Source: Mesotaenium endlicherianum
Taxonomy: Eukaryota
Length of the DNA stretch: 38,516 nt
NCBI GenBank assembly: GCA_009602735.1
Contig: WELA01002258.1
Span: forward strand, 713,546 to 752,061
Direction: 5' to 3'
Made by a program: the position numbers and the translations under genes. Positions 14,901 to 37,389 of the stretch are shown in pieces (the stretch's first letter is position 1; each line of letters starts with the position of its first letter). The notes beneath the pieces were generated by a model, which worked only from the letters and a program-made list of their open reading frames with translations, was not told where the DNA came from and did not search any database.

Positions 14901-17900
14901 TCCCGTCCGTCACCTTCTTGTGGGCTGTTGCGCGCACCACCGCTGCCGCTGGAGTGGTTGGTACGAGTTGCTCCTAATGTGCATGGACTGCCTCATCTGC
15001 TGGAGAGGTCGCAGGGAAGGAGGGGTTCTTGGCTAAGGATGGGAGAGGGAGTGGAAGCGCCTGCGGACCTCTATGGCGTTGATGTAGGGCGCGCCAAAGA
15101 GGCCGCGGTTGAAGGCGATGGTGAGGTTGGGCGTGGTGACAGGCAAGTGCACCGCCTTTGTGGTCGCAAAAGCCGGGTATGCGCTGTTGTAATTTATCAG
15201 CACCTGCCTCGTCATCGCCATCAGCATTCATCAGAGAGCCGGCTGAGCTCGGGAGAGGAGCAGCAACAGCAGCAGCATCAGAACTTAGGGGCTTAAAAAC
15301 AGGGAGTGAGGGAGGGCGGGGAGAAATCTCCAGGCAGGCAGGCAGGCAGGAAAGAAGCATAGTGGAGAAGGGCGGACTAGCAGCAGGTGGGAGGGCGGCC
15401 AGGGGACAGGAGGGGAGGGAGCTCACAGCGGTGTCCTGGAACTGGACCGTGAAGGCGCGATAATAGACGTTGCTGTACTCCAGCTCCGCAAACAGCAGCC
15501 GAACCTGCAAGCCGGCAGCCAGCAGCCAGGGTGTCATGTCCTGCCCTCTTCCTTGCTCTCGCTCTCACTCTTTTTGTCTAGTAGCGATTGACAACGTCGG
15601 GAAACATGTCTGGGTGGACCCCCACCCAAGCAGTGGCAAAATGCAGCACCAGCACCAGCATGAGGGGACGGGAGCACGCACCAGGTACAGGCCGGGCCTG
15701 GGTACGGGGATCCGGTAGTAGTTGAGCGTCTCCCCCGAGAACTCGCGGTACGACGCCGCCACCTGCAGCGCCTGGTTGTTGTCCTGCTCTCTCGCCAACA
15801 AGGCAAACTTGGCCAGGCTGGCAGGCACAGCCACACCCCCCGAGAAGTATCGATCCGCCACATACGGGAACCCAGCGGCCGAGACCATGGCCTCTCCACC
15901 GCAGTTGATCCGCAGAGTGCCTGCAAGGGTAGACAGGTAGTGCAATGCATCGGGTTGGCACTCGAAAAGAAAACTTTCCCTCAACTTACATATAATGAAA
16001 GATATCAGGCGCTTAGAGGACCAGGTGCAGCAAGGGGTTGGCACCGCCACCTCCTCGCTCACTCACAAAGCATGGCCCATGCCTTGCCGACGTGTGATTG
16101 AAGTAAGGACAGGACTAAGCATCTCCTCCCTCACATGCAAAGGGAAAAACTAGGATTGCTACTCCCCTGGGCTAGCACGGGGGGAGGGGGGCAGGTCTGA
16201 GGCTTGACCTTTTCCTTGCCCTTGAACTCAACCTTGGTCTGCATGCAAGTCACTCCCGCCCAGCACAGGAGCTGCCCCCCCACGCACATGTGGAGCCCGG
16301 GGGGCTAGAGGCTGGAGGATAGGGGCTAGGGGCTAGGGGCTAGGGGCTAGAGGCTAGGGGCTAGAGGCTCTCTCCCTCTCTCCCTCCCTCTAACCTGCTC
16401 TTGCTCGGGCTTCCTTTGATCTTACCGTCAGGAAAGGGATCAAAGACTTGGGGCAGCGGGCTGTGGCGGAACACTTCCAGCGCGCTCAGCAGGGGCTCCT
16501 GCACGGGGCTGGTGGGAACGTTGATGACGGTGATGTTGATAGTTCTGCTGGTCGCGGCGGGCACGGGCTCCACGTTGAAGTCCAAGAACATGGCCTTGCT
16601 GGGGCCTGCCAGCCGCACCACGTCCAGGCCCGCATACACCAGCTGCACCCCCAGCCCAGGAGGAGCATGAGCGCGCGCACGCATTCACACCCACACACAC
16701 ACAGGAGCACCCTCCCTGTCCTCTGACGGACAGCAGAGCAGCAGCGGAGGGGGCTCCTAATGCCAAGCTGCATACAAGCATATACTCCCCCCTCAGCCCG
16801 GAAGCACAGACGCGCAGGCGGCATGTTCCATGAAGGAGCAACCGGCCCCACCCGCTACCAGAACGCATGATGGGCGCTGCCGCCCGTTTAGTACACGGGC
16901 AGTGAGTGATTTATTAGTCGGACTGACCTCGTCATTGACGTAGACGTTCATGACGCGCTGGCCGGCGGTGAGGCCCTGGACCTCCGCAAAGTGCAGGCGC
17001 GCCGTGTGGTAGGAGGCGCCTAGCACGGGCACCACGATGTAAAGCCCCACACCCGTCAGGTTCTGCGCCGCGATGGTGGTGGCCGTCTGGAGCACGCGCA
17101 GCGGCAGGAAGTCGGGCGAGCTGCCCGTGCCCGCCACCTGGACGGCGGGGCCCACGCGCGTGCTGCTGGTGCGGTTGTTGACGTACATGAGCGGCACGTC
17201 GGGCTCCCACGTGCGCCCCTCCGAGTCCAGAAAGGGCGCGGGGTCGCCGCCCATGTCCAGGCGCGTGATGGTGCGCATCATCATGGGCGTGTTCACATTG
17301 TTGCGGTACAGCCCTGGGTAGTGGCGCGCCACCTGTCAAGTCGGCAGCACAGCAGAGGCGCAGATGGTGACTTGCATGACATTTAGGCTAGCAGAGGTCA
17401 GAGCAGAGCAGAGCAAATGACTCGCCAGAGGTTGGGGTCTGGCTGCGTTGCTCCCATGCCTGCCTGCGTGGCAGCTCCTGCCAGTAGCATGGCTGCGTTT
17501 GATTTAATCGCCGCATCATCGTCATCATCATCATCATCATCTTGATCAACGTCCGCAGCTGCAGCAGCAACGCTCAAAGTGCATGCATGCAGGTGCCGGC
17601 CCACGCTATGCAGAGAGCAGAGCACACGCCAACGGAATAATGGAGCGTGTAAACAAGCGCACTCACCTCAATGGCGGAAATGTGCATGGCTGCTGTGATG
17701 GCGGTGAGGGACACCACGACCGCGCTGCCGTACACGGGCACCGAGAACTCCAGAAAATATGGCACCGCCGGGTTTGCCACAGTGTACGCCCTGTACGCCT
17801 GCAGCAGCAGCCTCAGGAGCAGTGGCCATTGCTTCAGCACTCGGCCGCAGGAGGTGGAGGAGCAGGAGTCGCTGCAGCTGACTAGATGCAACACAGCGCG

Positions 17901-19048
17901 CCCGGTGGCTACATTTTCACTGTTATCTAAAAAATTGCAGCTTGCTCTCCTGCTTCCTGCTGCCCTTGCCACTTCTTCTTTTTTTGGGGGGGGGGNNNNN
18001 NNNNNNNNNNNNNNNNNNNNNNNNNNNNNNNNNNNNNNNNNNNNNNNNNNNNNNNNNNNNNNNNNNNNNNNNNNNNNNNNNNNNNNNNNNNNNNNNNNNN
18101 NNNNNNNNNNNNNNNNNNNNNNNNNNNNNNNNNNNNNNNNNNNNNNNNNNNNNNNNNNNNNNNNNNNNNNNNNNNNNNCCCCCCCCCCCCAGCACCATCA
18201 ACAACACGTGCATGCATCCGGCCGCGCGCTCTTGATGAGGCACGCAGCCACGATGACAGGAGACTCCTGCTCATGCCGTGCACGCAGTGCTCGCAAGCAT
18301 GCATCCTTCTTGGATGTACTTCCAGGAGGGTGCTCATGGTGGCAAGTTCAAGAGCCCTCAAGTGCCACCGTGACCCCCATGCCACTCTCCCAACGATGAC
18401 ACCTGGCTCCGAGGACCTCCAGCTTCTCCTTTCTGCAGTCTAGGTGTGGCTGGACCACGCTGGACTACACCTGAGCAGATTGCATCAGCGGCAGAAACTT
18501 TGTCTGGCACGCTACGCTGCCCGAGTCTGTGAATGGGATGACACAGCTGGCAGCAGCAAGGCCCCATCCTTTCCTTTTCCCACGCCCTGCTGCCTTTGAA
18601 GCATGCCTTTCCATCGCCGGCCACTCCTCCCCGTCATGCGATGCCTCTACGGCCATTGCAACGCAAAGAGTGAGGGGTGCATGCAGCCCCACCCACTCAC
18701 AGCAGCTGGCGCTCTCCGGGGCTAACTCCCTCTCAGAGCAGGCTCCACGCGTCGCAGCTGGTCCGGCAATTCAACCCTCACAGGGTACCATCCCACGGTC
18801 AGGGGGAGATGGGCGTACCCAGAAGTAGCCAGGGGCAGCCACAGAGATGTTGTAGGAGCCCACGTAGTCCGTGGGGGCCCACTCGCGGGTGGTGGCATAC
18901 AGCAGGTTGTCCTGCAGCAGCAGCTGGGCTCCCGACGCCGTGCTGTTGGCTGGCAGGCCGCCGACATAGCTGCTGTCGGCCGCCCACGTGCGGTTAAAGT
19001 GGTCGACGAAGGCGGGACCGCCGCAGTTGATGCGGACCACTTCGCCAT
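4122..19048 (-). CDS. Multi-exon malectin-like receptor-like kinase (CrRLK1L-related RLK/Pelle): 5 tandem malectin-like pairs, TM helix, Ser/Thr kinase; 5' exon not located
   Basis: Manually spliced GT-AG exons: 19048-18819, 17798-17667, 17332-16928, 16642-16426, 15920-15682, 15504-15427, 15203-15069, 14887-14486, 13896-13689, 13441-13212, 12947-12870, 12643-12512, 12336-11905, 11708-11504, 11346-11102, 9628-9500, 9347-8931, 8706-8505, 8352-8117, 8017-7940, 7811-7680, 7457-7346, 7177-6891, 6524-6326, 6176-6042, 5905-5688, (gap)5614-5500, 5348-5188, 5058-4913, 4708-4615, 4493-4122(stop). Recurrent malectin motifs (R/H)INCGG, RLHFAE, GxRVxDIxIN, LDVV..VGP, xSAIE. Confidence 0.88.
6042..6176 (-). 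CDS. Transmembrane exon of the RLK
   Basis: [35 protein letters not shown]: hydrophobic helix followed by an RRR stop-transfer; flanked by AG/GT. Confidence 0.9.
   Translation of the reverse strand, partial: RRPRGSRPERLPAQLSERVCWRQCCCWRPLCGAAGATISRALWT
6326..8352 (-). CDS. Malectin-like pair 5 exons
   Basis: [75 protein letters not shown]. Confidence 0.85.
8505..11346 (-). CDS. Malectin-like pair 4 exons (interrupted by duplicated segment and gaps)
   Basis: VVRINCGG (11346-11102); VAGNFSF..ISAIE (9628-9500); ERYNIGG..VRLHFAE (9347-8931); [14 protein letters not shown] (8706-8505). Middle 78-bp exon not seen; N junctions at 9830 and 10885. Confidence 0.8.
9831..10884. repeat. Apparently identical copy of 8413-9466 (offset 1418), bounded by single Ns; probable assembly artefact
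   Basis: Identical ORF translations in both copies, introns also identical by eye; N at 9830 and 10885 next to poly-G runs. Confidence 0.85.
11008..11044. repeat. (CAG)n microsatellite in an RLK intron
   Basis: Direct inspection. Confidence 0.85.
11504..13441 (-). CDS. Malectin-like pair 3 exons
   Basis: [57 protein letters not shown]. Confidence 0.85.
13689..15920 (-). CDS. Malectin-like pair 2 exons
   Basis: [66 protein letters not shown]. Confidence 0.85.
16301..16368. repeat. Intronic (CTAGGGG)n heptamer array
   Basis: GGCTAGGGGCTAGGGGCTAGGGGCTAGAGGCTAGGGGCTAGAGG. Confidence 0.85.
16426..19048 (-). CDS. Malectin-like pair 1 exons
   Basis: [60 protein letters not shown]. The short middle exon is probably in N-gap 17996-18178. 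Confidence 0.8.
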
Positions 19049-21269
19049 CTGGACGTCACCTCCAATGCAAAATGCACGAACTGAGTGAAATGAGCGAACA
19101 GAGTTCTCGGCAGCATAATATCATTCTGGCAGCTGCTTTCAACCCCTGCCCAGTCAACGCTGCTCGACCAATCTCCAGAAATGCATATAAGTCTCCCTTC
19201 TACCTTTCCTTGCTTCCCCGTGATGACAAGCTTGACGACTGCGTGCGTCGGCAAACGCTTCCTGAAAAGCAGGCAGGCTGCTGCTCGTCGCTGCAAGCTG
19301 CTGTGGCGTGTGAGGACCCAGCACTCAATTGACATGCAGCGGAAGACAAGGAGGGGGAGGGGAGCATCTGTGCATGGGTTGACAGTGCACGCCACACGCA
19401 GCTTCCATTGCTGCCATAACCCGCCATACACAGCCTTGCAGTGTATTNATACACAGCCTTGCAGTGTATTTGAAACTCCTCATCAACTTCATCAATATAC
19501 AGAGTTGCATCCAATCAGGCATTACCAAGCCTGATGAAAATGTCAGACTGATTCTAACCTATAGCACAGCCGCATAGCGACTATCTGCCCCTGCTCCCAT
19601 ACCAATACATAAGTTCACTACACGTTTCTTGTTCGACTTGTCGGGTACAAGTCCCTCCTGCGCTCCGCTAAGAACCGAAGCCACATGTTCTCCAGTCAAC
19701 TCATTTCATCATTCAACTTGTTCAGTTTCTGTCGTGGCCCCTCTACTTGATGAAAGTATGTCGTCTATGCCCTTACCCTCTTTGACTCTACTCGCGTTTA
19801 TATCAGAACGCATTCTATAAGTATAACTACTCCACAAGCCAGCATAGCAGCTAGCGTAGACACACGTGCTCGTTTGAAATTCGTACTCATGTTCGGGTTA
19901 TTCAAAATGCGCACGCTCAGTCACATAGATGGCAGGTACAGAAGGGTGGAGTCGCTGAAGGCACTTCAAGTAAAGAGCCAGTTCTGCTTCAACTTCAAAC
20001 TCCCCTGCAGTTATGCAGCCAGTCGGGTACCGTAATACAGGCTTGCATATCTTGGGGAGGCAAACGTGCTTAAGAAGGAAAGCTTGCGAGAAGCTGAAAC
20101 TAAATTCATTCCTGAGGCAATTCTCCTTGTTTCGCTATAAGAAAGTGCTTTTTTATTTCCCGTAGCCTGTGCTCGACTGTTCAATGCGAACTACGAGAGC
20201 CTTGATATCACTCACATGCATTCTCAGCACCCACGCGTTTACCTGAACTCTCGCCATTAACGGCTACAAGCAGGACGATGAAAATCCAGTATAAGCATGC
20301 GAAGCGTCCGCGCTTCATAGGCCTCATGTTGGCAGATTACTTCATAGAATTTTCTTGTCAAGGCATCAATAGTAGAGGGGGCACGACTCTACGAGGCAAG
20401 GAGTTGAAACATAAGCTGACGAATGGCAATTTTCTGAATTTCACAATCGAGGATTGGAGCAGACTAGACCTGATGTCAATCACTAATTGCAGGCGCGTGA
20501 AGGCCCGAGCTCTTGACGACGTAGCCGACTTCGGAACTTGTACACGTGAGGCGACAACAGAGAGAAGTGGGAGTAACCAGGCCTGACAGGGACAGGTAAT
20601 TGGGTCGGACCCTTGAAATAGTCTCGAAAACGCCAAAGTTTGCAATTCGCTTGGACTCCCGGAGCGGCCACCAACCTCCGGAACAAACTTTTCTCGATTC
20701 GACCGGGAGACATTTTAACCGCAAATGTATCCGAGAGGCATCGTACCAAGATGGACGAGAAAATGCCAGAATGTGATGAAGCCCTGCCTGGCGTAATCAT
20801 GCAACTATGAGAGCACACTGGACAGAAGTACTCGAGCATAAGCGTGTATGCAACAAACGACACTCATCGACACGATTTGTACGCCTCTGCAAATCTGTAC
20901 CTTGAGATCACTTGAAAAGCTGACAATTTCGAGACTAAGCACGCGAGGTCACGGAATTTGAGAAGCAAATGACAAGACGACAAGGTCCAGAAATATATAA
21001 TCGAGGTGACGACAAACCAGGCGCTTGACTAACAGTTCGTCTTGACGTAGGGCATTGTCACATACAAGAATCAAGGCGGCAACCTCAGTCATTCATGAGT
21101 GCGACCGCGACGTGGACAAGGACCGCTGACAATTTTCACCGTAACCGCTTCTTGCCGTTAGACGCAACGTATCTAGTTCGAAACACTACTGCTCGGATTG
21201 GGCAAGAGCCTAAATAGAGTTATTTTCCTTTGAAGTGTCTTACATTATTTTGTTTGTCTTAGGGACTCA

Positions 21270-22509
21270 TGTGGCGACTATTATCCGTTTGACGGTGTCG
21301 CACGCGCAGCGCAAGCTACGGCCACCTAGTGCTGAAAGTCAACGTTGCCTCACCCACCACTTGACTGATTACATCGCAGTTACCGGTTATGGCGGCGTCA
21401 AGACCACTGGCAAGGGGTCAATGGCAAGGGGTCAATGCCAGTGTGCCCCACACCCAAGGATGGGGGAGGTTTTGACAAGACAGCCGCGAGGCTAGGAGCT
21501 GGGGATCAGCAATGAGCCGCCCAGCAAGTACCAGGTCAGGTACTGTGTGACTGGCAGATTAAGCCAGGTCATGGCTGCAATGCCAAGATAGGTTACGGCC
21601 GCCCGGTTGGGAAAACTTGAGCAAGCGGCATTTGCTTGCACGCCGCTCAGGAATTCTTAGCCATGAGCCAATTAGGCGTGACTGCCGGCTGAGAAGCTAA
21701 GCAGCCACGCGCGACAGTCACAAGGTGTGCATGCATGCTGAGTGACTACGAGTTTGAGTTGAGCAAGGCTGGGCAGAGGCGACATGCAGCTAAGTTGTGT
21801 GACTAAGCACGGCATTCTCGAAAGATGACGCTGTGTGGTGCCTGCGAAAGGCACGAATCTTGCCTGAGACATGTCATTCACTCTCACGCACCTTTGCCAA
21901 GAAGCAGAAGGAAAGAGAAGAAGGGCGCGAAAAAGAAGAAGGAGTTCCCAAGGCCATTGGAGGGCCAAAGCCCCACGCTTCTGACGACGCCGAAGATTCT
22001 TCTGTGTATCATAGATAAGTTAGGATTGTAGGAGTTCCCAAGAGGGAATCTCACGGTTGAAGAAGGAGAACTGCAGAATAGAATTTGCTAGGAGATTAGC
22101 ACAGAGTCAGCCGAACGCCACAAGTGTGTGTGTGAAGCAGCCTTAAAATGGTGAGTTGAGTGTTGATTTCCAAGTTCTCAGAAGTCGCATTCGCATCTCG
22201 AAGAGAGAGAGTAGTATTGACAGATAAAGCTCTCAGTGAAGAACTGAGTGAGCCCAGCCTGGCAGTGAAGAGCTGTTAAGGCGCGGTGTTAAGTGAAGAG
22301 CTTGACCCAGGGCAGCATAGACGTGGTTTCAGAGTTTTGTAAGCTGACTTGTGGAAGTTAAGCGAAAGCCCGAAGGGCAATTTTCTCAGAATCTGACGTT
22401 GCATGTCAAGCTGTTTAGAGTGTGATTTCTGCAAACTACAATTTGCTCACCTATGAACCCAAGAACCTTAAGGCATAAAGCCTATGTGGAAGTAAGAGAC
22501 TTTCGTCCT
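21270..22509 (+). repeat. Terminal repeat A (1240 bp), 5' copy
   Basis: Nearly identical to 31267-32492. The 14-bp length difference is explained by a tandem duplication GGCAAGGGGTCAAT at ~21409-21436. Confidence 0.93.
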
Positions 22510-22845
22510 ACTTCTGAGAATATCAGTTCCGTGGTTCAGGTGAATAGAAATTCCCAAGCAAATTGGGGATTGAGGCCTGTGAGGGCTGCCGGTGCTCAAC
22601 CTGGAAGGGGACCTGGAGAAATTCAACTGTACATGCAGTTGAGGAGTGGAAGACTCTACTACCCTGTGGAGCCTGCGAAAGTATCTGATTCAAGCCAAAG
22701 TCCACGAGAAAGTGAGACATCTGAGCACACGGATAACCTGTAGAGTGAGCAACCGTCGAGAGACGAGTCTCGCCATACTGCCACAAACAGTGAGAATCCG
22801 TATAACGCGCGAGCTTTTGTACCCAATTCGGGCAGAGAGCACGAC

Positions 22846-24328
22846 GTGTGGGATAAAGATAGTGAGTCTTGGTCACCACTCGAAATGACTGGTGATGATA
22901 AGGATGAAAATCCTAAGTTCAAGCTGTCTACAAAGTGTTTTAGTGGACGAACCAGTGGAAATAGTCTCACTTTCGAAGAGTTTGATGAGATCTATTGGGC
23001 TGACTTCTTTGAGAAAATCCGAAAGGATTCTTCTTACACTCAGTCTATCGCTTTTATAAGCTTGGTTCAGTACTTGGACAAGGATGCCTTGTTGCTGTAT
23101 TGCCAATTTCGGAAGGATGAGAACCTTACTCAGAAATGGGCGTTTGACGAGCAAAAGAAGGCGAGAGATTTGAAAATCCAGAATGAGGCTGCGAAAGCCC
23201 GCCTGTCCGCTTTGTCATCAGGAAGAGCGATACCTGCTGCACCTGTTGAGAGCGTAAACTTAGCTGCACCAACACAAGAATTAACAGATGCCATGAAGCA
23301 ACTCACCAAGGGTCAGCAGCGAGCGGCTACTCGAGATGATGATGCTGGATCTGTCATAGAATTGCGTAAAGTGTGTGCAGAATTGTCTGAAAAGATTGCT
23401 AATGCTCAGGAACGAGAAACACGCAGAGCTGCACCTTTTACAGGGCAGCATGGTGATAGTGCCACCACGGAAGCAGGCCATGCGCAAGCGTTGCCTAGTT
23501 GCCGTAGGGATATGGAGGCTGGAGATGACCAGTTAGACTCTTAGCACTGTCTGCGTCGTTTCTTTAAGTTGCTTGAAGCAAAATCCCCAGAGAATCGCAG
23601 TCTTAAAGTGCACCGTTATGTTCATTTTGTCCGTCAGAAGAACGACACAGTGATGGAGGTCAAATCCAGATTGGTAGACCTTGCCAAGAAGGCAAGAATC
23701 TATGAGCCTAGGATTGTGGCTGACAAATTCTTATTATGTCTGGGTAAAGACACAGATCGGGAGGTCAGGCCGCACCTATCTGCAAAACGCGGAATCGACT
23801 TGAACATCGACGAGGTTGCTGAAATAGCACGCAATGTCGAGGAAGGTAAAGTCTGGTACAAGGAGGCGTCCAGGACGCTTATGGCTCCTGAGAGAAGGGA
23901 GGAATCCTTTCAGCCTAAGGCCAATAGCTCTAATTTCCAGTTTAAAAAGAAGAGCGGGTCTTTCGATAAAATTTGCTAAGCACGCCAACACTGCTGAGAC
24001 AGCAGAGGGCTGTTGGAATTGCGGGAAATCGGGACATCAGAAGAGAGATTGTCCGTACCCGGATGCTAAGCAATTGTTTGCTAGCAAGGCGCAAGTATGC
24101 GCACATTGCAGTAAAAAGGGACACTCAGAAGATGAGTGTTGGTCCAAGAACCCAAATCTGAAACCACCATGGGCTAATGCTGCCACGAAAGAGGCGGATA
24201 AGGGTAAGAAAAGGGAGAAAGATAACTCTGGTAACCGGAAGGGTAACCAGAAGTATGATGCTATGAGTGCAGAGATTGCAGAGTTGAAAGCTAAATTTGC
24301 AAGACTAAATGTGCCTAATGTCTTATGA
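22846..24328 (+). pseudogene. gag: gag region with two CCHC zinc knuckles (stop at 23542, frameshift near 23970)
   Basis: RQKNDTVMEV..RL.DLA capsid-like motif; CWNCGKSGHQKRDC and CAHCSKKGHSEDEC. Confidence 0.85.
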
Positions 24329-24767
24329 TGCAGATGTGGCCGAAAAGACCATCTGCAAAGGCGAGAAGCTGACGCCTGAGAAGGCCGTGGCTGCAACGGC
24401 TGCGGAGCGCGCGGATCATGACCGTCTGGTTCCAAGGAATGCTGGGAAGCTTCCTTAGACCTTTCGGATCACTCTCGATGAGAACGAGATTGCGCAGCTA
24501 CAACAAGCCAAGCCTGGGCCACGCAAGACATTTAGTTTTTCGCTGGAAAAGCTAAAGGCTCTGGTGGAACACCGGATTCAGCACATTCCTTGTCTTTCAC
24601 TCGCTGATCTGCGTCTTACATATCCTTTCACGATTGAGGAAGCCGGACAGCAGCTGGACCTAGCTAAGGAAGGCGCGAACAGCGCTTCGCTGCCAACTAA
24701 TTTCAGCACTGTGAGAGAGCAGAACAAGGATAGAGTTATGACGTTTAACAACTAGGCCGCTCCCAAT

Positions 24768-25110
24768 ATCCTATTGGACACAGGCGCACAGCCAGTAATC
24801 TTGGGAAAGCGAGCTGTGAAAGCTCTGGGATTGACGGCAAGGGACCTGAAAGAAAGTTCTTTCCAGTTGAGGACTGCATCTGGGCAAATTTCAAAGTCTT
24901 GTGGAATCACCCGCAAGCCTGTGGAAATCACAGTAAACTTGGGGAAACCTGAGGAAGCGTCACTGTTATAGAGTGTACGGTGACAGAGTCAGAAAACTAT
25001 GATGTTCTATTGGGGACAGAAGCTCTGATTCCCCTGGGTATGGTCATTGACCTGCGGAAGCAGAGGGTGACTTACCAGTCGACAGATCGGCAGCCGACAG
25101 GAGAAATTCC
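24768..25110 (+). pseudogene. Retroviral-like aspartic protease (disrupted near 24970)
   Basis: ILLDTGAQPVILG active-site motif; downstream YDVLLGTEAL..LGMVIDL..RVT. Confidence 0.88.
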
Positions 25111-25420
25111 TGTAAAAATGGTTTGCTCGGGAGAAGCAAACTACGGACTGCTAGACTGCTATGTGAATGACCAGTATCCAGACCATTATGACCTCATCAT
25201 GCAACGCAAAGAGAAGATCTACACCAGCATCAACATGCCGACTCCCTTGGTTTGGCAACCTTGGATTATGGAGCAACTAGAAGCTGTGAGTAACAAGGAC
25301 CGTGGCCCGCAAGAGCTGCTGCCTGTTCCTTATCTAGTTAAGAGTGTTGCCAATTTGATGCCTGGAGTAGACCCATTGCCGCAAGGCACTGTGAGGATGG
25401 AAGATCCTTTTCGCAGGAGA

Positions 25421-26390
25421 GGAGTAGTAATGCTGGAATTGTTCGCCGGACTTTGTACTGGAACCATCGCACTGATTCAGCGAGGTATCCGGGTATCCAA
25501 AGTGCCGTATGTGGACAATGATGAGAATGTTTTTACAGCTCTTGAGGAGGTCATGAGTCAGATGCGGCAAATGTACCATTTCAAGGCATTGGTGCCCACT
25601 AGTGTGGTGCGTCTTGCTGAAGGAAACATTCTCGATGTGAAGTCTGAGGACCTGGATGGTTACAGGATTGACTGGATTTTTGCGAGAATCCCTTGTCAAC
25701 CTTTCTCGCAAGCTGGGAACAGGAGGGGATTCAATGACCCGCGAGCACAACATTGGGGAAGGATGGTGAAGATCATCAGTATGCTGCGGGAACGCCAGCA
25801 TCTCTACCCACAAGTGCTTGTGATTGAGAATGTACATCCAGGGATGGATTACAACCAGATGAAGCCAGGAGATCCATGGCTGGTCTTCGACTCCACCCTG
25901 GGTCATCATGTATTGATCAACGACGCCAGGCACGGAGGACTCTCACACCGGGCCCGACTATTCTGGACCAACGGCATGTCCATTGAAATCCTGAGGGAGA
26001 TGGAGGAGATTACGCGGCGCACGCCAACGACAGTATCTGTGGGAGAAGCACTGATGGTGGAAACCAAGCCAGTGATCAGGAGGGATTCCTACCCACAGTA
26101 CGTCGTCAACGAGCCAGGCCGGCCGAGGGTGGTGCTGCCCACCTTCACAGCATACTCAGGATCACGCGCTTTCGTGAATGGAGTGGAGGACCAGGATTGG
26201 TCAAAGATGTGCACGATAGAGAAGCTCAGTGGAGAGAGCCGACAGCTGAAGAGAAGGGAAGGTGCCTGGGGGTACTCAACTCCATTGCACAAGAAATTTT
26301 TGCAATGGTGGGACAGGACAACGCTGGGAAGATATTCGGCAATATGATTGGGCATCACTCCATGACAGGGTTGGTAGAGACGATTATGAC
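25421..26390 (+). pseudogene. C5 cytosine DNA methyltransferase domain (DNMT3-like) within the retrotransposon polyprotein; one frameshift near 26183
   Basis: Motif I LELFAGLCTG (25433-25462); motif IV IPCQPFSQAG (catalytic Cys 25694-25696); motif VI VIENV (25820-25834); motif VIII HRARLFWTN (25946-25972; compare DNMT3 HRARYFWGN). After the frameshift, motif IX-like WREPTAEEKGRCLG (26230-26271) and motif X-like KIFGN (26329-26343). Confidence 0.9.
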
Positions 26391-28176
26391 TTGGCAACAG
26401 ATGATGTTCTCTGACAAGCCTATGCCCAGGCCGAGGCCGGTAACAATTGGAGTCCATGTGGTGCCAACCTCTGATCAGAGAGCTATCAGGGAAGCGTATC
26501 AGCAACAAAAAGAATATGCTGTTGAAAGAGACTTCGCTGAGGCTGACCAAGATGAAACACTCAGAGAAACCAGAGTGGTGGATCTGACCAGGTATCAAGA
26601 CCTATTGACGCGAATTGACAATCGGATGGCGACTCTACGCGACCCTCTGGAAATAGAGCAATGGAGGCTGCAAGAAGAAGTAACCATGGAAGACCAAGCA
26701 ACTGGTGCAGCAAACCCTTTGGTGAGCGCTGCAGTAAGCAAATCACAGGAGGTTCCAGCATCTGCAGAACGCTCCAGCCAAGTATTTAGGAGGATGTCGG
26801 AATGGGAAGAATATACCAGTTCTGAGTTACGAAACATGGCCCCAGACCAGGTCTTCGGGAGCCCATCCCCAGACGCGGTAACATCAAGATATGAAGAACG
26901 CCAGTGCAATATTGGCGAATGGGCCGAAGAACGCAGTCAGAATTCAGGAAATTCTGGAGGGTCTGGAAAGACCATTTGCCTGGAGGTGATTTTTGAAGAA
27001 CACAAGAAGGAGACAGCCAAGAGATTGCCCGCCACACTTGCTCTGATGAGCCCAGGGCCAGAGGCCAAAGGGCAACCACAAGACACAGTTGGCAACACAG
27101 CTGAGTCGATCACCAGGCAAATCATGGCGCAGTTGCTGGAAGCAGACGCCCCTCGACTCAAGGAAGAGAAAGTGGCGAAAGCAGCTCTCGCTCTACAGTC
27201 AGCCATCATCAACATGGCGAGGCTCAACACAGGAGGGGATGAAGAATTACCGCCTCCTAGAACAGAGAAGCCGGAGGAGGAAGAGGATGCAAAGATGCAA
27301 GGCCTCTCGGAGTTGGAGTCACCATCACTCAACAATGAAGGGGACATTAGGGAAGAAATTCCACGTTTTCCCACGCCAGAGTTGGATCTGCTTGACTTAC
27401 AAGAGCTGAGGACAGACGACTGGGTGGCTGACCACCTGATGGGGCCAAGCCCGGCAGACCTTTATGAAGAATTAAGGTCGCCAACATCCAGTTTTCCTTT
27501 TGCCAGTCTTCCAGTGGTAGAATCCAAGTCAACCGCACAACCGCCGCAACGGCAGGAGGTGACTGCCTGCACTGCTAATGTGGAGACAGCACAAGCAAAG
27601 CCCGAAAGTCGCGCAAGCAGACCAAGGAAGGTGGCCCGTGAGGGTAACGCATCTTTTAGGAGGATACTAAAGCAATATTTCAAGCATAAGGGGAAGGCTC
27701 AGAGAGAGGGCGTTTCGCGAAGAACCACAGCTCCACCTCCTCCGCCTCTGCGGGATATTCTGCAGAGAGAGGGAGAGGACGGTTTGGTTTGCAGGGTAAT
27801 GGCATTGGGCATTAGTGTGCCGCCAGGCATGAACACGCCCTCGTTGCAACTATCAGATCTTAGGATACAGAGGTCGGAGGAGCCTGCTCCTATGATACCT
27901 GCAATCCCAGGATCGGAACTGATGGATCTGAGAAACACCATCAGCCGCTTGACCGCAGCAGATGATGCCTTTCTCGCACAACTAGCGGCACCTCAAAGGC
28001 CGCAAACATTGGCGCAGGCATGGATGGTCACACCACCCGCAAGGGAGGAGTATGGCACGACCGTCGTCCGCATGGCTATTATTGAGCGAGAATGGGGCTG
28101 GGCGATCAGCCCTAGGACAGATCCAGCAGGTTTTCCAATGGCAACCCAACCTCAGTGCATGGGGCTCCCACAGTAG
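26391..28176 (+). CDS. Long stop-free polyprotein segment of unknown function (acidic/Pro-rich) between DNMT and RT
   Basis: Part of the 659-aa ORF 26197-28176; no domain I recognise. Confidence 0.55.
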
Positions 28177-28900
28177 TAGTCGCTAAAAAGGACGAGGCCG
28201 GCAATTACTCTGCCACTCGTATGTGTGGAGATTACAGGCGACTGAATCTCTACACGGAGCCAGATAGCTATGTGATGCCTACACCGGAAAGGATCTTTGC
28301 AATTGCCACCACCGGAAAGGTGTTTAGCATTATCGATATGCGCCAAGGCTTCAACCAGATCCCTGTGAAAACAGAAGGTCGAGGTAAGACAGCTTTCTGG
28401 GCTCAAAGGGAACTTTGGCAATGGACAGTAATGCCATTTGGACTGAAAAATGCCCCAGCCATATTTCAGAGGACTATGGATAAAGTGCTGGAGGGGCTGG
28501 ATTTTGCTAAGCCATACATTGACGATGTGGTAGTATTCAGCAAGTCCATAGAGGAGCACCTCGAGCACTTGGAACAAGTGTTCCAGCGCTTGGAGAAATT
28601 CCAGATGAAGCTGCATCCCGGGAAGTGCAGATTCTTTGAGGCACACGTGCCTTACCTAGGACATGAGATTGGGAACAATGCTTTGTCCCCTCATGCTGTG
28701 AAGACTGAGGCTATTTAAAAGATACCTGCACCTGCGAATGTGTCGAAGCTAAAAGCTCTGTTAGGGCTAAGCGGATACTATCGTAGGTTTGTGAAGGATT
28801 ATAGCAGAATTGCTAAACCCGTGACGAAACTCCTGAAAAAGGATGTACCTTTTGTGAGGACAGAAGCTCAGGAGAAAGCCATGAACGAGCTTAAGGAGCG
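28155..28900 (+). pseudogene. pol: Reverse transcriptase (gypsy-type), premature TAA at 28716
   Basis: VVVAKKD..RMCGDYRRLN, IDMRQGFNQI, MPFGLKNAPAIFQR, YIDD (28515-28526), KCRF..VPYLGH, LGLSGYYRRFV. Confidence 0.95.
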
Positions 28901-29310
28901 GCTGGTAACAGCCCTAGTCTTGCGAACGCCTGACTACTCCAAGCCGTTCAATCTGCACACTGACTGGAGTCGTGTGGGAATTGGCGCAGTACTCACTCAG
29001 GCCACAAGCCCTACAGAGGAGTATGTCATTGCCTATGCCTCACGCTCTAACAATCGAGCGGAGAGCAACTACTCGTCCTATGAAGGAGAGCTGCTGGCAG
29101 TGGTTTGGACGGTCACACACTTCAGAGAGTATCTGTGGGGAAGACCCTTCACACTGATCACGGATCACTCACCATTACTATGGCTGATGAAGAATGGAGA
29201 CCTCACTAGTAAGTTGGCTCGCTGGGCTCTTAAGCTGCAAGAGTACCAAATGACGGTGGTGCACAGAGCAGGAGTGCTCAACAACGAAGCCGATGGACCC
29301 AGCAGGAACC
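28901..29310 (+). pseudogene. RNase H (Ty3/gypsy type)
   Basis: FNLHTDWSRVGIGAVL, IAYASR, EGELLAVVW, FTLITDHSPL, RWALKLQEY, NNEADGPSR. Confidence 0.93.
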
Positions 29311-29612
29311 CAGATCCATCTTCAGACAACAGAACAGGAGCTCAAGAGGATGAAGACCCGAGCAGCCCAGCAGAGTTGGTGGCTTGCCTAGCCAAAATGG
29401 CTGGAATAGTAGCATCAGGTGAAGTTGAGCCTCTACCCCTATTAAGTCCAGAGATCTGGAAAGATCAAGCTACTATGCACTGGCTGAAGACGGGAACTCA
29501 CTTGGAAGGACTATCAGTGAAGGAGAAGGACCAGGTAAACCATTGAGCTAAAAGGTTTTGCTCAAAATGCAACAACCTCTTCAAAATTGAAGAAACTGGT
29601 CAGGAGAAGTTA

Positions 29613-30700
29613 GTGCCAGAACCCATCAAGAGACGAGCCCTTGTGCAGGAAATGCACGAGAACACTGGACACTATGGTGTCAAGAAGACATATAGTCTTT
29701 TGGAGCTGTCTTACTGGTGGAGGGGCATGAAGCAGCAGTATGAAGATGTGATCAAGGCCTGCCAAAGCTGTGATCGCGTCAAGGGTGGTTTTACACAGCA
29801 ACATCCACACTTGCAACCTTTGCCAATCATGGGCCTAGGCTACCGTTGGAGCTGCGATCTCGCAGGTGAGCTACCGCTGTCTAAGCGAGGTAACAAGTAT
29901 ATCATGGTCATGATTGAGCATTTCTCTAAGTGGATAGAGGTTGTCCCTCTGACTGCTAAGGAGAGTCTAGGGACCGCGGAAACGTTCCTCAATGGTGTGA
30001 TTGTGCGTCATTATGCTCCAGCAGAAGTGCTGACAGACCAAGGGTCTGAGTTCCAAGGGTCTTTTCAGAAACTCTTGGATAGATGCTTCATCGATCATCG
30101 CACTACGTCTAGAGATCATCCACAAGCAGATGGTCTAGCAGAAAGGATGGTGCAAACCATTAAGTCTGCTTTGTGCATGTTTTGCCTTGAGCATGACAAG
30201 CGTGACTGGGATCTAGCCCTGCCATGGCTGGTTATGGGTTACAGATTAGCAAGCAGGCTGCCTTGGCAAATTACTCACCATATCAGATACTGTTTGGCAG
30301 AAGTCCAGTAGTGCCCAGCAGCATCAAGCAGGAGATTGAACAGGTGAAAGACCTGGACAGCCTTGATGAACTGTTAAAAGTGATGGTGCGCCGTAAGGCG
30401 TTATTTGAGCGCATGATACCGGCTGCACTAGACAATCTGAAAATTGCACAGAAAAGAGATATGCAACATTACGCCAGGACGCGAGACGGGAGCTACCGCC
30501 TGCAGATGACGCGGATTCAAGAAGGAGACTTTGTCTACCGCAAGCGCTAGACCAAGACCACCATCGACACCAGTTCAGGTGCAGTGATCTTGCGCGTGAA
30601 ACATGCGTTTGACAATGGTGTGTTAAAACTGGAAGGTTCTGATGGTAAAACCATGAGAGACCACGTGCAGAATTGCTCGCTATGCCATTTGCCGAATATT
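29613..30700 (+). pseudogene. DDE integrase with HHCC zinc finger and C-terminal extension (frameshift ~30245, stop 30548)
   Basis: H..GHYG..C(QS)C; WSCDLAG; VLTDQG; HPQADGLAERMVQTIK; SPYQILFGR; GDFVY. Confidence 0.93.
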
Positions 30701-30748
30701 GATCCCACAGTTAGGGTTGTGCCCGAGGAATTGGTGCCGGCCACGCCT

Positions 30749-30877
30749 TGTGCCAGCTGCAAAGTGCTGGACGATCAGGAAGCAATGGTAACTTGCGATA
30801 AGTGTGGTGCCTGTTGGCACACTTTCTGCATTGGCGAGGAAGAAATTATGGCAGGACGATGGGAATGTCCTGATTGC
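30749..30877 (+). CDS. PHD finger (C4HC3) at the integrase C-terminus
   Basis: CASCKVLDDQEAMVTCDKCGACWHTFCIGEEEIMAGRWECPDC; all 8 zinc ligands and the conserved Trp are present; polyprotein stop at 30911-30913. Confidence 0.92.
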
Positions 30878-30948
30878 CATCCTAAAACCCCTAGCCGCAG
30901 GGCTGGAAAATAATAGCTTTCAGCAGGAAAGGCAGGGACGCCTCAGCT

Positions 30949-30960
30949 GAAAGGGAGGGG
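30949..30960 (+). promoter_or_regulatory. Polypurine tract
   Basis: GAAAGGGAGGGG immediately before TGTT at 30961. Confidence 0.85.
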
Positions 30961-31264
30961 TGTTAGAGGAATTAAGGCAAGGCAAGTATTTTTAAATTTT
31001 CTGCTGAAAGTCTTAGGATAAGCAGATGGTGAGAGCCGGGTGATAGAGAACGTCACCTTGAGTGTTGGTCAAGGCTATATGGTGCAAGTTCAGGAACCCA
31101 GGGATAGGTTAACCCTGGTAAGGCTTGTCACCGACACACGTGCAAAGGTCGATCGACCATGTCTGCCACACGTGAGGAGGGCCACCAACACATCAACCAG
31201 GCCGAAGGCACACGTGCTGGAAGGCTACGCACGTGCCGAGAAACCGACACTGTTAGGCACAACA
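30961..31264 (+). repeat. Repeat B (304 bp, TGTT...AACA, LTR-like), first copy
   Basis: Follows the PPT; inverted termini; nearly identical to 32493-32796. Confidence 0.92.
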
Positions 31265-31266
31265 GC

Positions 31267-32492
31267 TGTCGCGACTATTATCCGTTTGACGGTGTTGCAC
31301 GCGCAGCGCAAGCTACGGCCACCTAGTGCTGAAAGTCAACGTTGACTCACCGACCACTTGACTGATTACATCGCAGTTAGCGGTTATGGCGGCGTCAAGA
31401 CCACTGGCAAGGGGTCAATGTCAGTGTGCCCCACACCCAGGGATGGGGGAGATTTTGACAAGACAACCGCGAGGCTAGGAGCTGGGGATCAGCAATGAGC
31501 CGCCCAGCAAGTACCAGGTCAGGTACTGTGTGACTGGCAGATTAAGCCAGGTCATGGCTGCAATGCCAAGATAGGTTACGGCCGCCCGGTTGGGAAAACT
31601 TGAGCAAGTGGCATTTGCTTGCACGCCGCTCAGGAATTCTTAGCCATGAGCCAATTAGGCGTGACTGCCAGCTGAGAAGCTAAGCAGCCACGCGCGACAG
31701 TCACAAGGTGTGCATGCATGCTGAGTGACTACGAGTTTGAGTTGAGCATGGCTAGGCAGAGGCGACATGCAGCTAAGTTGTGTGACTAAGCACGGCATTC
31801 TCGAAAGATGACGCTGTGTGGTGCCTGCGAAAGGCACGAATCTTGCCTGAGACATGTCATTCACTCTCACGCACCTTTGCCAAGAAGCAGAAGGAAAGAG
31901 AAGAAGGGCGCGAAAAAGAAGAAGGAGTTCCCAAGGCCATTGGAGGGCCAAAGCCCCACGCTTCTGACGACGCCGAAGATTCTTCTGTGTATCATAGATA
32001 AGTTAGGATTGTAGGAGTTCCCAAGAGGGAATCTCACGGTTGAAGAAGGAGAACTGCAGAATAGAATTTGCTAGGAGATTAGCACAGAGTCAGCCGAACG
32101 CCACAAGTGTGTGTGTGAAGCAGCCTTAAAATGGTGAGTTGAGTGTTGATTTCCAAGTTCTCAGAAGTCGCATTCGCATCTCGAAGAGAGAGAGTAGTAT
32201 TGACAGATAAAGCTCTCAGTGAAGAACTGAGTGAGCCCAGCCTGGCAGTGAAGAGCTGTTAAGGCGCGGTGTTATGTGAAGAGCTTGATTCAGGCCAGCA
32301 TAGACGTGGTTTCAGAGTTTTGTAAGCTGACTTGTGGAAGTTAAGCGAAAGCCCGAAGGGCAATTTTCTCTGAATCTGACGTTGCATGTCAAGCTGTTTA
32401 GAGTGTGATTTCTGCTAACTACGATTTGCTCACCTGTGAATCCAAGAACCTTAAGGCATAAAGCCTATGTGGAAGTAAGAGACTTCCATCCT
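31267..32492 (+). repeat. Repeat A' (1226 bp), second copy of 21270-22509
   Basis: Direct alignment by eye from TGTCGCGACTATTATCCG to GAGACTTCCATCCT. Confidence 0.93.
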
Positions 32493-32796
32493 TGTAAGAG
32501 GAATCAAGGCAAGGCAAGTATTTTCAAATTTTCTGCTAAAAGTCTTAGGATAAGCAGATGGTGAGAGCCGGGTGATAGAGAACGTCACCCTGAGTGTTGG
32601 TCAAGGCTGTATGGTGCAAGTTCAGGAACCCAGGGATGGGTTAACCCTGGTAAGGCTTGTCACCGACACACGTGCAAAGGTCGATCGACCATGTCTGCCA
32701 CACGTGAGGAGGGCCACCGACACATCAACCAGGCCGAAGGCACACGTGCTGGAAGGCTACGCACGTGCCGAGGGACCGACACTGTTAGGCACAACA
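32493..32796 (+). repeat. Repeat B' (304 bp), right terminus of the element
   Basis: TGTAAGAGGAATC...TAGGCACAACA followed by CTCA. Confidence 0.92.
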
Positions 32797-33319
32797 CTCA
32801 TTGTTGCACGTTTAACAATTGAACAATGAGAGAGTTGTTAGCGTGCTTTTCAAATAGCCATGATGAATTTCTTGCATGTAACCCTGAAAATGTGCATTTC
32901 ACGAAACAGTGTGCTTCAGTCCCCCAGCATAGTTCTTTGTGGTGGCGTGCGTCAAATCCCCGCCCCCGTTGTCCACGTGAGTTCGACCCCACATTCTCTG
33001 CAGGCAGCAGGCCTTTATTGAGGTGTGGGTGGAGGACGCTGCCACCTGTCCCATTGAGGAGGTCTCTGTGGCGCTCTTCTAGGGAGGGGCACCTGTCGCA
33101 GTGGAGAAGAAGGAGGCTGACGCATTGTATGACCTAAAGAAGTTGGAGAGGGAGCTGGCGGGCGTGGAGCATTGCCAACCTGGCGGGGCTGCAGGAGCGC
33201 CTCTCGGTCGTCAACCCGTTCAACCTCCTTATACATGAGTTAACTGATTGCATGACTGATGCACGTTCACTCGCATTTGACTTATGAGTATTGGAACGCT
33301 AGTTGTGAAGTCTTTTGCT

Positions 33320-35215
33320 GATTATTAGGTAATCAAAAAACCCCATAAGATTACTTGATGACGTAAAATCTTTTAACAATTGTTAATCGTCTATCGATAA
33401 GTCAATTCATTTCAGTGGTATTGGAGTTGGTGTCTTAGATTCCTTTGTATGGTAAGGACGCGGTCTCAAAATAGCAACTCTTGAGATATGGAGGGTCAAG
33501 ATAACGAGAAGAGGGAAATTCTAGGTGAAAATGAAGATGATAAATGTTGTACTTATGCTGAAGTTCTTGCGCCTAAAGAGGCTAGAGAAGCCGAGGAAAC
33601 GGCGACGGCCTTTGTTGTAGTAGCAGCTTAGCAAGTTGAAAAATATCTCATTAGAACAGAGGCCGAATGTTTGGCTAAAGCAGAGGACGAGGCAGCTGCT
33701 GAAAAGCGGCGTCTGGGTGACAACAGCACGGTTGAAGAGATGATGGCAGAAAGGGCCACTCTCCAAAACGAGCTTCCTGATGGAGCTACTACTGTACCTT
33801 TCACCCTGGAGCTACTACTGTACCTTTCACCCAGATAAATAGACAGTTAAGCGAGACAGGACTTGCTAATGCAGCAGCAAGAGGAAATGCCAAATCTGTT
33901 GCTAAGCAATTGAATGCTGCTGCTGCTGCTATTGGTGGATTGCAACCTCAGAATGTTGATTTGGGTGCATTGTTCGTTCAAATGCAGTCTCAGATGACAA
34001 TGATGTATCAATCCCAACTGGAGGATTAGAGGATTATGATAGCATTGTTGCGTAAGACAGACCAACCGGGGTCTCACACTACTGGTGGTGGCAGGGGGCC
34101 TAGCAAGCTCAAGCCAAAGTCACCTCAAGACTATGACCCCGAGGGAAACAAAAAGTATTCCTTGACAAAGTTTCTCGGTGATGTTGAGCAGTGGCTGGAG
34201 AATTATCCAAACATGCAAGATTTTGGAATATTTAGACACACCGGTGCTCTACTGAAAGACAGCACAGCAGACTGGTGGCTACTCTACAAAGGAGAACGGA
34301 AGGCTAAACAACTCGATGACCCTACATGGGAAGAGTTCCGTTGAGCAATTGCACAAGAAATTTGATGTCATCAATCAGATGGAAAAAGCTATCTCTGCAA
34401 TGATCTCCTTGTCACTGGAGCAAATTACTTCAGTTGGTGAGTATGCACAGAAGTTCCAAGAAAATATGATGAAGAAACCTGCATTGTCACAGCTATCTAG
34501 AATTGCATACTTCCAGTTTGGCTTGAAGTCTGAGATCTCGAGTCATTTTGCTAAGAAGAAGTATGATAAGCTGGCTCACTTGATCCAAAATATTGATGCT
34601 TGGGATCAACGGGGATTCAACTATAACTTGGCACCCACCAGTGTCGCTCCTTGTGTCCTGTATGGATGGCAAATGAAGGAAAAAGAAAGGCTTCGAGGAA
34701 GATGCAAGTTGCTGAATACAATGGAGTTCGTCTAAAGCTGGAACCTCAAGGAAGATATAATGTTCTGTTTGTTGCTCAAAGAGTTCCCTCCTCAACCTGA
34801 GGAAAGAGTAAGCGCTCCGGAGCACCCCACCGCCGCGATAATTGTTGCTCAGTATGATGGTGTTTTTAACATGCCCCCAAGACTGCCCCCTAAGAGGGAG
34901 GTAGATCATAAGATTGATCTGGTACCCGGAGGCAGCCTCCTTGGCAGCGTACGCATGGCTTGTTCTATGTGGAGATTGAGGAGTCAAAAACACGAATTCT
35001 AAAAGTTCAGGAGAAGAGTCACATATCTCCTAGTATGTCCCCTTATGGCGCACCCATTCTACTTGTTCAGAAAAAGGATGGCAGTATGCGTATGTGTATG
35101 GACTACAAACCTAAAATTAGAATCACGTTAAAAAAATTGATGTGCTTTACCTAGGATTGAGGATCTGCTTGATACAGTGTCTAGAGCTAAAGTGTTAAAT
35201 AAAATTGACCTTGAT
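33320..35215 (+). mobile_element. Degenerate, truncated Ty3/gypsy element: LTR 3' end, decayed Met PBS, gag, start of RT
   Basis: ..ATTCATTTCA (33414) + TGGTATTGGAG; gag-like FLGDVEQW..TADWW..PTWEEF; LPPKREVDHKIDLVPG, SPYGAPILLVQKKDGSMRMCMDY, LPRIEDLLDTVSRAKVLNKIDL. Confidence 0.85.
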
Positions 35216-36375: not shown

Positions 36376-37094
36376 GTAATGAATCAGTATATTAGTAGAT
36401 ATAATGTTCATTTAAATATAATAGTTAATTGAGTTCAGCCTGCTGAACTCTAGTTAATAATCGGTCTGCTGAACTTTATATTTAATAGCAATTTAATGAC
36501 TCAGCCGGAAGCAGCAGGCTGAAGTCAACTTAAGTCAGCTTGCTGACACATTCTTTGACAGCCGGTTGACTTCCGTACTTGGTAGCAGCGAATTGCCTCG
36601 ATATGCATCAAAGTGTGATATGCTAGATGAATGGCCAGATGACATCCCTATGATGGATGGCGATTTGGGATGATGGGAGATGGCGGTGGATTTGGTTAAC
36701 CGAGGTCCTACCAACGTGGTTAACTCCCGGGTAGGCGGTGCCATCGCATTGGCCGTTGAACAGCAATCTCATTCCATGTACATATGCTAGGCATTGCTCT
36801 CGAGTTGGGCATTCGGAAACGAGGCCAACTCTCTTGTACAGCATACTAAGAGAGATCTGAATTCAAGGCGAGAAGCTATTGATACAGACTGTCTTCTAGC
36901 CTTGCTTATGTATGAGTTTACTGATTGCATTATTGATGCTAGTTTACTCGCATTTGACTCACGAGTATTATTCACTGCTAGTGTGTTGTCCTTTGCCGTT
37001 TAACCAATTAACGGAAAATACCATAAAGATTACTTGCTGATGTAAAGATCTTTATTTATTGTTAATCGCCTGTTTGGTAAGGCGATTCATTTCA
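36375..37094 (+). repeat. 5' LTR (720 bp) of a gypsy-like element
   Basis: TGTAATGAATC...GATTCATTTCA terminal inverted repeat (10/11 match); 3' part is similar to 33340-33414. Confidence 0.85.
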
Positions 37095-37095
37095 A

Positions 37096-37107
37096 TGGTA
37101 TCAGAGC
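37096..37107 (+). promoter_or_regulatory. tRNA-iMet primer binding site
   Basis: TGGTATCAGAGC one base after the LTR-terminal CA. Confidence 0.92.
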
Positions 37108-37168
37108 AGTTATCACAGTCTTCTTTGTATGGTAAGGACAAGGTCTCAAACTAGCAACTCCCGGAGAC

Positions 37169-37389
37169 ATGGAGAATCAGGATAACGAGAATGTCAAAAA
37201 CCAGGCGGAAAGTCATGTAGCGGGAACCCGTACCTATTCTGAAGCAGTGGCAGATACTGCAGCTAGGGAGGCTGCAGATGAGGCAGCTGCTATTGCCACA
37301 GTCGCAGCACAGCAAGCTGAGGAGGAGAGAGCCAGATTAGAAGCTGAACAATTAGCAAAGGCCGCTGAAGATACAGAAAGGAGGGAAGT
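37169..37389 (+). pseudogene. 5' fragment of gag (MENQDNE..., related to MEGQDNE at 33488), truncated by a nested LTR
   Basis: ATG shortly after the PBS; leader similar to 33440-33500. Confidence 0.7.

Follow-up and report, generated by a model that had tools for sequence, protein, structure and literature searches.

The Ty3/Gypsy-type retrotransposon considered here lies in a 38,516-nucleotide (nt) stretch of the streptophyte alga Mesotaenium endlicherianum (contig WELA01002258.1, positions 713,546 to 752,061; this whole analysed stretch is the window). Self-comparison showed that the element occupies 21270-32796 in the order A1-coding-B1-A2-B2, and that its inserted ends sit 306 nt within the repeat defined by its polypurine tract (PPT) and primer-binding site (PBS). 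With a probability of roughly 0.65, the cDNA of such elements is joined into a circle, which the DDE integrase opens at an internal palindrome. The wider proposal, towards which we lean only slightly, is that in a broad green-lineage branch of Gypsy elements the attachment sites have left the ends of the cDNA for an already joined palindrome within the long terminal repeat (LTR), and that integration takes place obligately from circles, which would make these the first LTR retroelements to require circles, with an active example spreading in Chlamydomonas laboratory strains. The repeats and signals on which this rests are as follows.

21266-21269, no strand: left target-site duplication (TSD) CTCA, from the sequence; relatives also have 4-bp TSDs
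21270-22509, forward strand: repeat A1, with the left inserted end (TGT); distal U3 plus R-U5 by the priming signals
22143-22149, forward strand: putative TATA-like box, from the sequence, 27 nt upstream of the predicted start
22170-22185, forward strand: predicted transcript 5' end and self-primer, with a perfect 11-nt core at 22175-22185 and an A2 copy at 32158-32168
22510-22520, forward strand: PBS directly after A1, complementary to 22175-22185
30949-30960, forward strand: PPT adjoining B1, predicted to set the cDNA left end at the first base of B
30961-31264, forward strand: repeat B1, proximal U3 by the priming signals
31262-31269, no strand: palindrome ACA-GC-TGT, in which the attachment ends are joined with 2 nt between them, the predicted integrase cut site
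31267-32492, forward strand: repeat A2, from self-comparison
32492-32493, no strand: A-B joint, where the two cDNA ends are predicted to be joined end to end; its position is imprecise among copies
32493-32796, forward strand: repeat B2, with the right inserted end (ACA), supported by 26 mixed-flank contigs in sequencing run X1
32797-32800, no strand: right TSD CTCA, from the sequence

The two A copies are 97.0% identical by BLAST, with 24 substitutions in 1226 aligned columns (2.0%) and a 14-nt duplication in A1, and the two B copies are 96.7% identical, with 10 substitutions (3.3%) and no gaps. A1 and A2 are identical over a 521-nt block (21772-22291 in A1), a pattern that none of 20,000 permutations equalled; outside this block they diverge by 3.4%, similar to B (3.3%), which suggests a single age for A and B plus conversion or assembly collapse of the block. 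No run of N interrupts the element. Its outer ends start with TGT and finish with ACA, and CTCA stands on either side; a 4-bp TSD fits better than a 5-bp version (ACTCA) because the latter needs B2 to be one base shorter than B1. The TG...CA ends and 4-6 bp TSD usual for Ty3/Gypsy elements are found in the window element and in relatives, and the split direct repeats have the A1-B1-A2-B2 order of PAT/Ngaro (DIRS-order) elements. The two complete collinear LTRs of a canonical element, with outer ends set by PPT and PBS, are lacking. A sequence-only reading had described these split repeats together with a DDE integrase, a PPT, TG...CA ends and a CTCA TSD, and both coordinates and domains agree with it.

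Run X1, possibly the window's own source, contains 20 contigs with unlike sequence before the first base of A and 26 with unlike sequence past the last base of B (agreement 0.38 at each end, that is, mixed flanks). These contigs represent other insertions, so that independent insertions share the ends proposed from the window. Summed contig depth in this run was 404 in the left flank and 12,600-83,000 inside the element, values that do not give a copy number. Two contigs of run X11 depart at 21270 and another bridges the A-B joint, while contigs of run X9 stop at 22509 and 30963, the branch points predicted by the layout. No loose end at the start of B or the end of A occurs among the 15 run X1 rows listed, beyond which 237 more exist, and no empty site was found among the top 15 joints listed. 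A run X7 contig was discounted as a bridge of the B-A junction, as it reaches only 10 nt past the junction against a 31-nt rule. The layout is real and family-wide and does not stem from a one-off deletion. Such an event had been the alternative of the sequence-only reading, in which B is an ordinary LTR whose 5' copy was deleted through microhomology and whose 3' end gained a partial duplication, by rearrangement or assembly artefact. A false-looking duplication elsewhere in the assembly (8413-10884) and the identical 521-nt block lend it some colour. For the family it is refuted and retains next to no probability, as it is contradicted by the 46 mixed-flank contigs at two ends, by the A-B joint bridged in another sample (run X11), by families of unrelated repeats that have the same layout, palindrome and TSD length, and by the curated consensus Gypsy-14a_cRei, which has the layout too. 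The window copy is a broken, dead copy of a real layout that was known but unexplained.

The families of unrelated repeats come from a search with an integrase alignment, which found 289 relatives in metagenome contigs, from which 79 loci in 16 families were kept; the integrase matched no viral contig, and the junction pattern of the window had no match in the metagenome contigs. Family 2 (47 loci, from an AT-rich host) includes complete A-coding-B-A-B elements in L045, in L055 and in L053 plus L062, which represent one insertion (99.45% identity over 3646 nt). Their TSDs read ATGT/ATGT, TTTA/TCTA and TGTG/TGTG, so the 4-bp TSDs expected of independent insertions are perfect in three of the four elements with both ends, the window included, and the fourth has one mismatch. 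At the palindrome halves, family 2 has 26 distinct right flanks and 3 left flanks, and a third family also ends there (L008, L014). Among the distinct right ends of family 2, 14 have the form B-A-B, 12 have a single B and in 2 the B-A is followed by other sequence; the 12 single-B insertions finish coding-PPT-B, as one-LTR circles or mirror openings would predict. Left ends were not found for L020, L029, L069 and L017. In this family the PPT-set end lacks TG because B starts with ATAC, and A never terminates in CA. A tree of 36 rows (19 of the 79 loci and 16 of 187 proteins, with no named canonical or chromovirus reference) places the window with these relatives, on long branches. As a separate observation, the three contigs L048, L050 and L051 show a single 16.2-kb element, its long frames intact, in circularly permuted versions, which points to either a collapsed repeat or a true one-LTR circle.

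The B1-A2 junction is palindromic because of its 2-nt GC spacer. An extended form, GACAGCTGTC, was found downstream of the integrase with at most one mismatch in 13 of the 16 families (10 exact, 3 with one mismatch), against a background of 0 exact and 5 near matches in 293,352 positions. The three families without a match are L014, which has a single-B end, L058, which is too short, and L067, which has two changes; in L067 the change is two-sided and preserves the palindromic symmetry. Within family 2, 8 of the 47 loci passed the one-mismatch test, the remainder being short, single-B or more decayed. A palindrome candidate in L075 was dropped, as it sits in coding sequence. Judged from these sequences, insertion appears to take place at the internal palindrome ACA^GC^TGT instead of at the ends set by priming. 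The sequence-only reading was right to see in this layout an unusual way of making ends.

The priming signals are of the ordinary Gypsy kind, with a PPT before the 3' repeat and a PBS after the 5' repeat, although their use in priming is predicted. A G-run ahead of B and TATA-like boxes at comparable spacing also occur in relatives. The 11-nt complementarity between the site after A1 and the segment within A was reached by 3 of 8300 control anchors, and a family variant of the binding site pairs with 15 of 16 nt of 22170-22185. This arrangement would correspond to the self-priming geometry of Tf1, with the transcript start being predicted. A competing 9-nt complement near 22385 was rejected, as it depends on base 22388, which is absent from most family contigs. 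In a diverged subfamily, the match of RNA reads is confined to the stretch between the TATA-like box and the last base of the primer, with loose ends at 32127 (8 reads) and 32168 (9 reads); two RNA runs (29 and 86 reads) contained no read 99% alike and no piles of starts or ends. Primer/binding-site pairs of 14-16 nt, each of a different sequence, were found in 6 of 15 loci scanned (L001, L004, L051, L066, L068, L071), four of which by eye have TATA-like boxes about 26-31 nt upstream, and pairs with 1-2 mismatches occur in families 2 and 3. Except for L049, the rest of the 15 loci have tails without a binding site or are too short. Since the PPT opens B and the self-priming site follows A, reverse transcription would yield [B-gc-A]-coding-[B-gc-A]. 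The predicted priming signals mark an LTR that differs from the inserted ends.

The B-A and A-B joints differ in their constancy. The 2-nt spacer of the B-A joint is present in all 18 family-2 loci listed, and one run X1 contig misses a base there. The A-B joint of the window family also occurs in a form with one extra A (depth 317 in run X1), a base that is also the first base of the binding site. Among 14 family-2 copies this joint varies in length, partly within a short repeat and hence partly ambiguously, and in L008 and L052 the first bases of B are lost. The B1-B2 distance was 0.078 within an element, as against 0.126 between elements and 0.124 among B2 copies (0 of 20,000 permutations as low), and the B2 copies form no lineage of their own. 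A variable A-B joint and a B2 that tracks its own B1 fit a joint made anew in each cycle.

These observations suggest the following route. Transcription would start near 22170-22175 in A1, and the 5' end of the RNA, for which the pairing geometry is evident, could pair with the site after A1 and prime its own reverse transcription, placing the right end of the cDNA at the last base of A. The purine tract would set the left end at the first base of B. The ends of this [B-gc-A]-coding-[B-gc-A] product, lacking a CA attachment end, would then be joined imprecisely into the A-B joint. The integrase would nick after CA on both strands of ACA^GC^TGT, at the positions where the observed ends lie, to leave two 3' ends in CA, each opposite a 5' overhang of 2 nt, as at processed LTR ends; the GC would be missing from the inserted ends because of this staggered nicking after each CA. 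The outcome of insertion, a 4-bp TSD around A-coding-B-A-B, is observed and is a circular permutation of a two-LTR circle, while one-LTR circles would yield A-coding-B.

An unlikely but serious alternative dispenses with the closed circle. Reverse transcriptase (RT), having reached the right cDNA end, would jump to a left end of the same or another copy and extend it through B and the palindrome, after which the integrase would cut two palindromes on linear or concatemeric DNA. Such a jump accounts for the imprecise A-B joint and for B2 following B1, as well as for single-B ends (by cutting the middle palindrome) and for the absence so far of the mirror form. It demands an efficient end-to-end jump in every cycle, none of which is shown here, and joints that miss the first bases of B are explained at least equally well by trimming of ends before ligation. 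A DIRS/PAT-like route, in which a transcript runs from A1 into B2, the internal B-A templates both ends and an integrase replaces the tyrosine recombinase, would explain the A1-B1-A2-B2 layout shared with PAT/Ngaro (PMC4157794; PMC5890265, Fig. 4c legend). It is improbable, as in several families the purine tract and the self-priming site retain the geometry of an ordinary LTR, priming after A1 would leave B2 uncopied, the B2 copies have no lineage of their own, the A-B joint is variable and no tyrosine recombinase was matched. The hybrid with tyrosine-recombinase elements envisaged in the sequence-only reading is likewise unnecessary, because the priming signals are those of an ordinary Gypsy element and only the integration site has moved.

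Several points weigh against integration from a circle opened at the palindrome. The main gap is that circle, cDNA and cleavage are predicted and that neither unintegrated DNA nor the mirror form A-B-A-coding-B was seen; all three family-2 elements with both ends read A-coding-B-A-B. For B2, its own B1 is the nearest neighbour in just 8 of 14 copies, and the likeness of B1 and B2 could also come from later gene conversion. In all 12 single-B copies the left end lies outside the contig, so that later recombination between B1 and B2 or collapse in the assembly may have produced them. In two distinct copies of family 2 (L035, L040/L042), B-A is followed by other sequence. Some ends at the start of B or the end of A may lie among the 237 further run X1 rows. 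The primer helix of the window copy lies 6.5 kcal/mol above the minimum-energy fold and does not form in the unconstrained fold, and L049 has no primer pair longer than 10 nt in 2080 nt. In the six loci with primer pairs, the pair is the longest inverted pair and is not anchored on a known end; their contigs run B-A-PBS, an order to be expected equally of a conventional LTR, a collapsed repeat and a one-LTR circle. Separately, in L035 (4373-12411) and L040 (3510-6515) the B-A tail lacks B2, and L035 continues into an inverted, rearranged copy of the element.

Circles opened by recombination or transposition enzymes are known elsewhere. The IS3 family (IS911) and IS30 insert a circle with a DDE enzyme via abutted ends separated by a 2-3 bp spacer; these are bacterial DNA transposons, and their junction is made by the transposase, unlike the encoded palindrome here. 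In PAT, TOC1 and Ngaro a circle is opened at the B-A junction. These elements share the A1-B1-A2-B2 layout with the window element but use a tyrosine recombinase (PMC4157794), whereas the window element has a DDE integrase, a PPT, a self-primer, TG...CA ends and a 4-bp TSD. The integrases of foamy virus and HIV-1 cut palindromic circle junctions (PMC1180852; PMC1905944), with 2 nt reportedly lost in foamy virus (PMC1180852); as in the proposal, a DDE integrase turns a palindromic junction into two processed ends. In these viruses the palindrome arises from the joining of the cDNA ends, and integration by this route is optional, whereas in the window element it is encoded inside the LTR and the predicted true ends lack attachment sequence. 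Self-priming geometry was described for Tf1 and Tj1 (PMC4600332). Tf1/Sushi and Tcn1 share with the window element a binding site right after the LTR that is complementary to the predicted RNA 5' end, without a tRNA site; they differ in that they are inserted by the ends that reverse transcription makes, with two full TG...CA LTRs, and that they carry a chromodomain, not a PHD finger (PMC4600332; PMC6317226).

The closest published descriptions come from green algae. KnitGypsy-Dnmt3 of Klebsormidium nitens combines DIRS-type repeats with Gypsy domains, left unexplained in the Fig. 4c legend (de Mendoza 2018, PMC5890265), and shares with the window element the Gypsy domains, a DNA methyltransferase (DNMT) inside pol, DIRS-like repeats and a streptophyte algal host. 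The portion of that text available is silent on ends, TSD, priming sites, palindrome and mechanism, and the comparison is by description alone. The 20 clusters looked up included no K. nitens sequence, and two DNMT protein searches gave no match. In Chlamydomonas reinhardtii, the Gypsy-14a_cRei consensus reads A...INT-PHD-PPT-B-gc-A-B with the same palindrome (Craig 2023, PMC9940879); the kinship of its integrase (INT) with that of the window was judged by eye. In the same library, 17 of the 33 Gypsy record ends shown finish with ACAGC before an LTR that starts with TGT. The active Gypsy-7a_cRei made 86 new insertions in one strain. Its left LTR is 8 bp shorter at its end than the right LTR, an offset left unexplained in the available part of PMC9940879, and its internal record ends in those 8 missing LTR bases plus GC. 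By comparison of these records, Gypsy-7a_cRei probably has the permuted layout, with a B of about 8-10 bp as compared with 304 bp in the window element, and with a binding site that starts with TGG (tRNA type), unlike the self-priming site of the window. In that library (PMC9940879) the segment from purine tract to palindrome seems to measure from about 6 bp in Gypsy-9 to 50-60 bp in Gypsy-14, as against 108-304 bp in the loci here, which suggests that B can grow from a few bases.

The layout was therefore not undescribed, as the sequence-only reading had supposed, since both PMC5890265 (Fig. 4c legend) and the repeat library of Chlamydomonas contain it. The mechanism is undescribed within the literature searched, where no account of a circle or palindrome mechanism was found (subscription papers, Repbase reports, the Craig thesis and some supplements lay outside its coverage). 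New here are the anatomy that explains the layout, its occurrence in many families, and a living system in which it can be tested. Beyond the sequence-only reading go the DNMT domain, the self-priming site and the 2-nt GC spacer to which the palindrome is due. LTR circles are usually taken as side products, and evidence that an integrase cleaves a palindrome internally comes mainly from two retroviruses (PMC1180852, PMC1905944). If a lineage does rely on such cleavage, the old question of the circle as precursor could be tested directly in an alga whose element is actively spreading (PMC9940879). Split direct repeats would then arise from an ordinary LTR by a shift of the cut site, with no tyrosine recombinase, and LTR finders that need paired TG...CA repeats plus a TSD (as in PMC6317226) would miss or mis-cut a widespread DNMT/PHD-carrying lineage.

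The coding region has the gag-protease-RT-RNase H-integrase order of Ty3/Gypsy elements with an HHCC/DDE integrase, and is interrupted by several stops and frameshifts. Pfam matches cover zinc knuckle, aspartyl protease, C5 DNA methylase, RT, RNase H, H2C2 and rve integrase, and PHD.

22426-24328, forward strand: gag region with zinc knuckles, stops and a frameshift (Pfam)
24741-24923, forward strand: aspartyl protease domain (PF13650/PF13975)
24953-26347, forward strand: open reading frame with a C5 cytosine methyltransferase domain (Pfam match 25430-25837, PF00145, E 5.6e-14)
25987-28176, forward strand: 729-codon open frame between DNMT and RT, of unassigned kind
28185-29246, forward strand: RT and RNase H, with an in-frame stop present (PF00078, PF17917, PF17919)
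29628-30143, forward strand: HHCC and DDE integrase core (PF17921, PF00665)
30749-30877, forward strand: PHD finger at the end of pol (PF00628)

The best match of the integrase with a solved structure is Ty3 Gag-Pol (E 1.3e-17), and D104, D164 and E199 are invariant in an alignment of 20 sequences. No tyrosine recombinase family was matched in the 9 + 13 frames scanned, which, with the DDE integrase and protease present, sets the element apart from PAT/Ngaro. Pfam gave no match to the chromodomain that follows the integrase in the self-priming chromoviruses Tf1 and Tcn1, and matched a PHD finger. The 729-codon frame had no Pfam match and no tblastn match among the 79 related loci. A DNMT homologue is present in 54 of 150 integrase relatives, chlorophyte proteins included, and in 30 of the 79 loci; it stands before RT in the window, in P0024 and in families 2 and 3, and between RNase H and integrase in most relatives.

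Outside the element, the minus strand at 5400-19500 carries a host gene of several exons, or an array of genes, in which malectin-like domains recur; among named sequences, two gene models of Mesotaenium are the closest relatives (91% over 76% of one frame). Within this region, 8413-9466 and 9831-10884 form a 100% identical 1054-nt duplicate with single Ns at 9830 and 10885, which looks like an assembly artefact. Downstream, two pieces at 33228-33510 and 36905-37191 are 76% alike and are followed by decayed gag-like frames, so that they are probably two old conventional LTR elements; the binding site near 37097 in the second piece is presumably of the tRNA-Met type.

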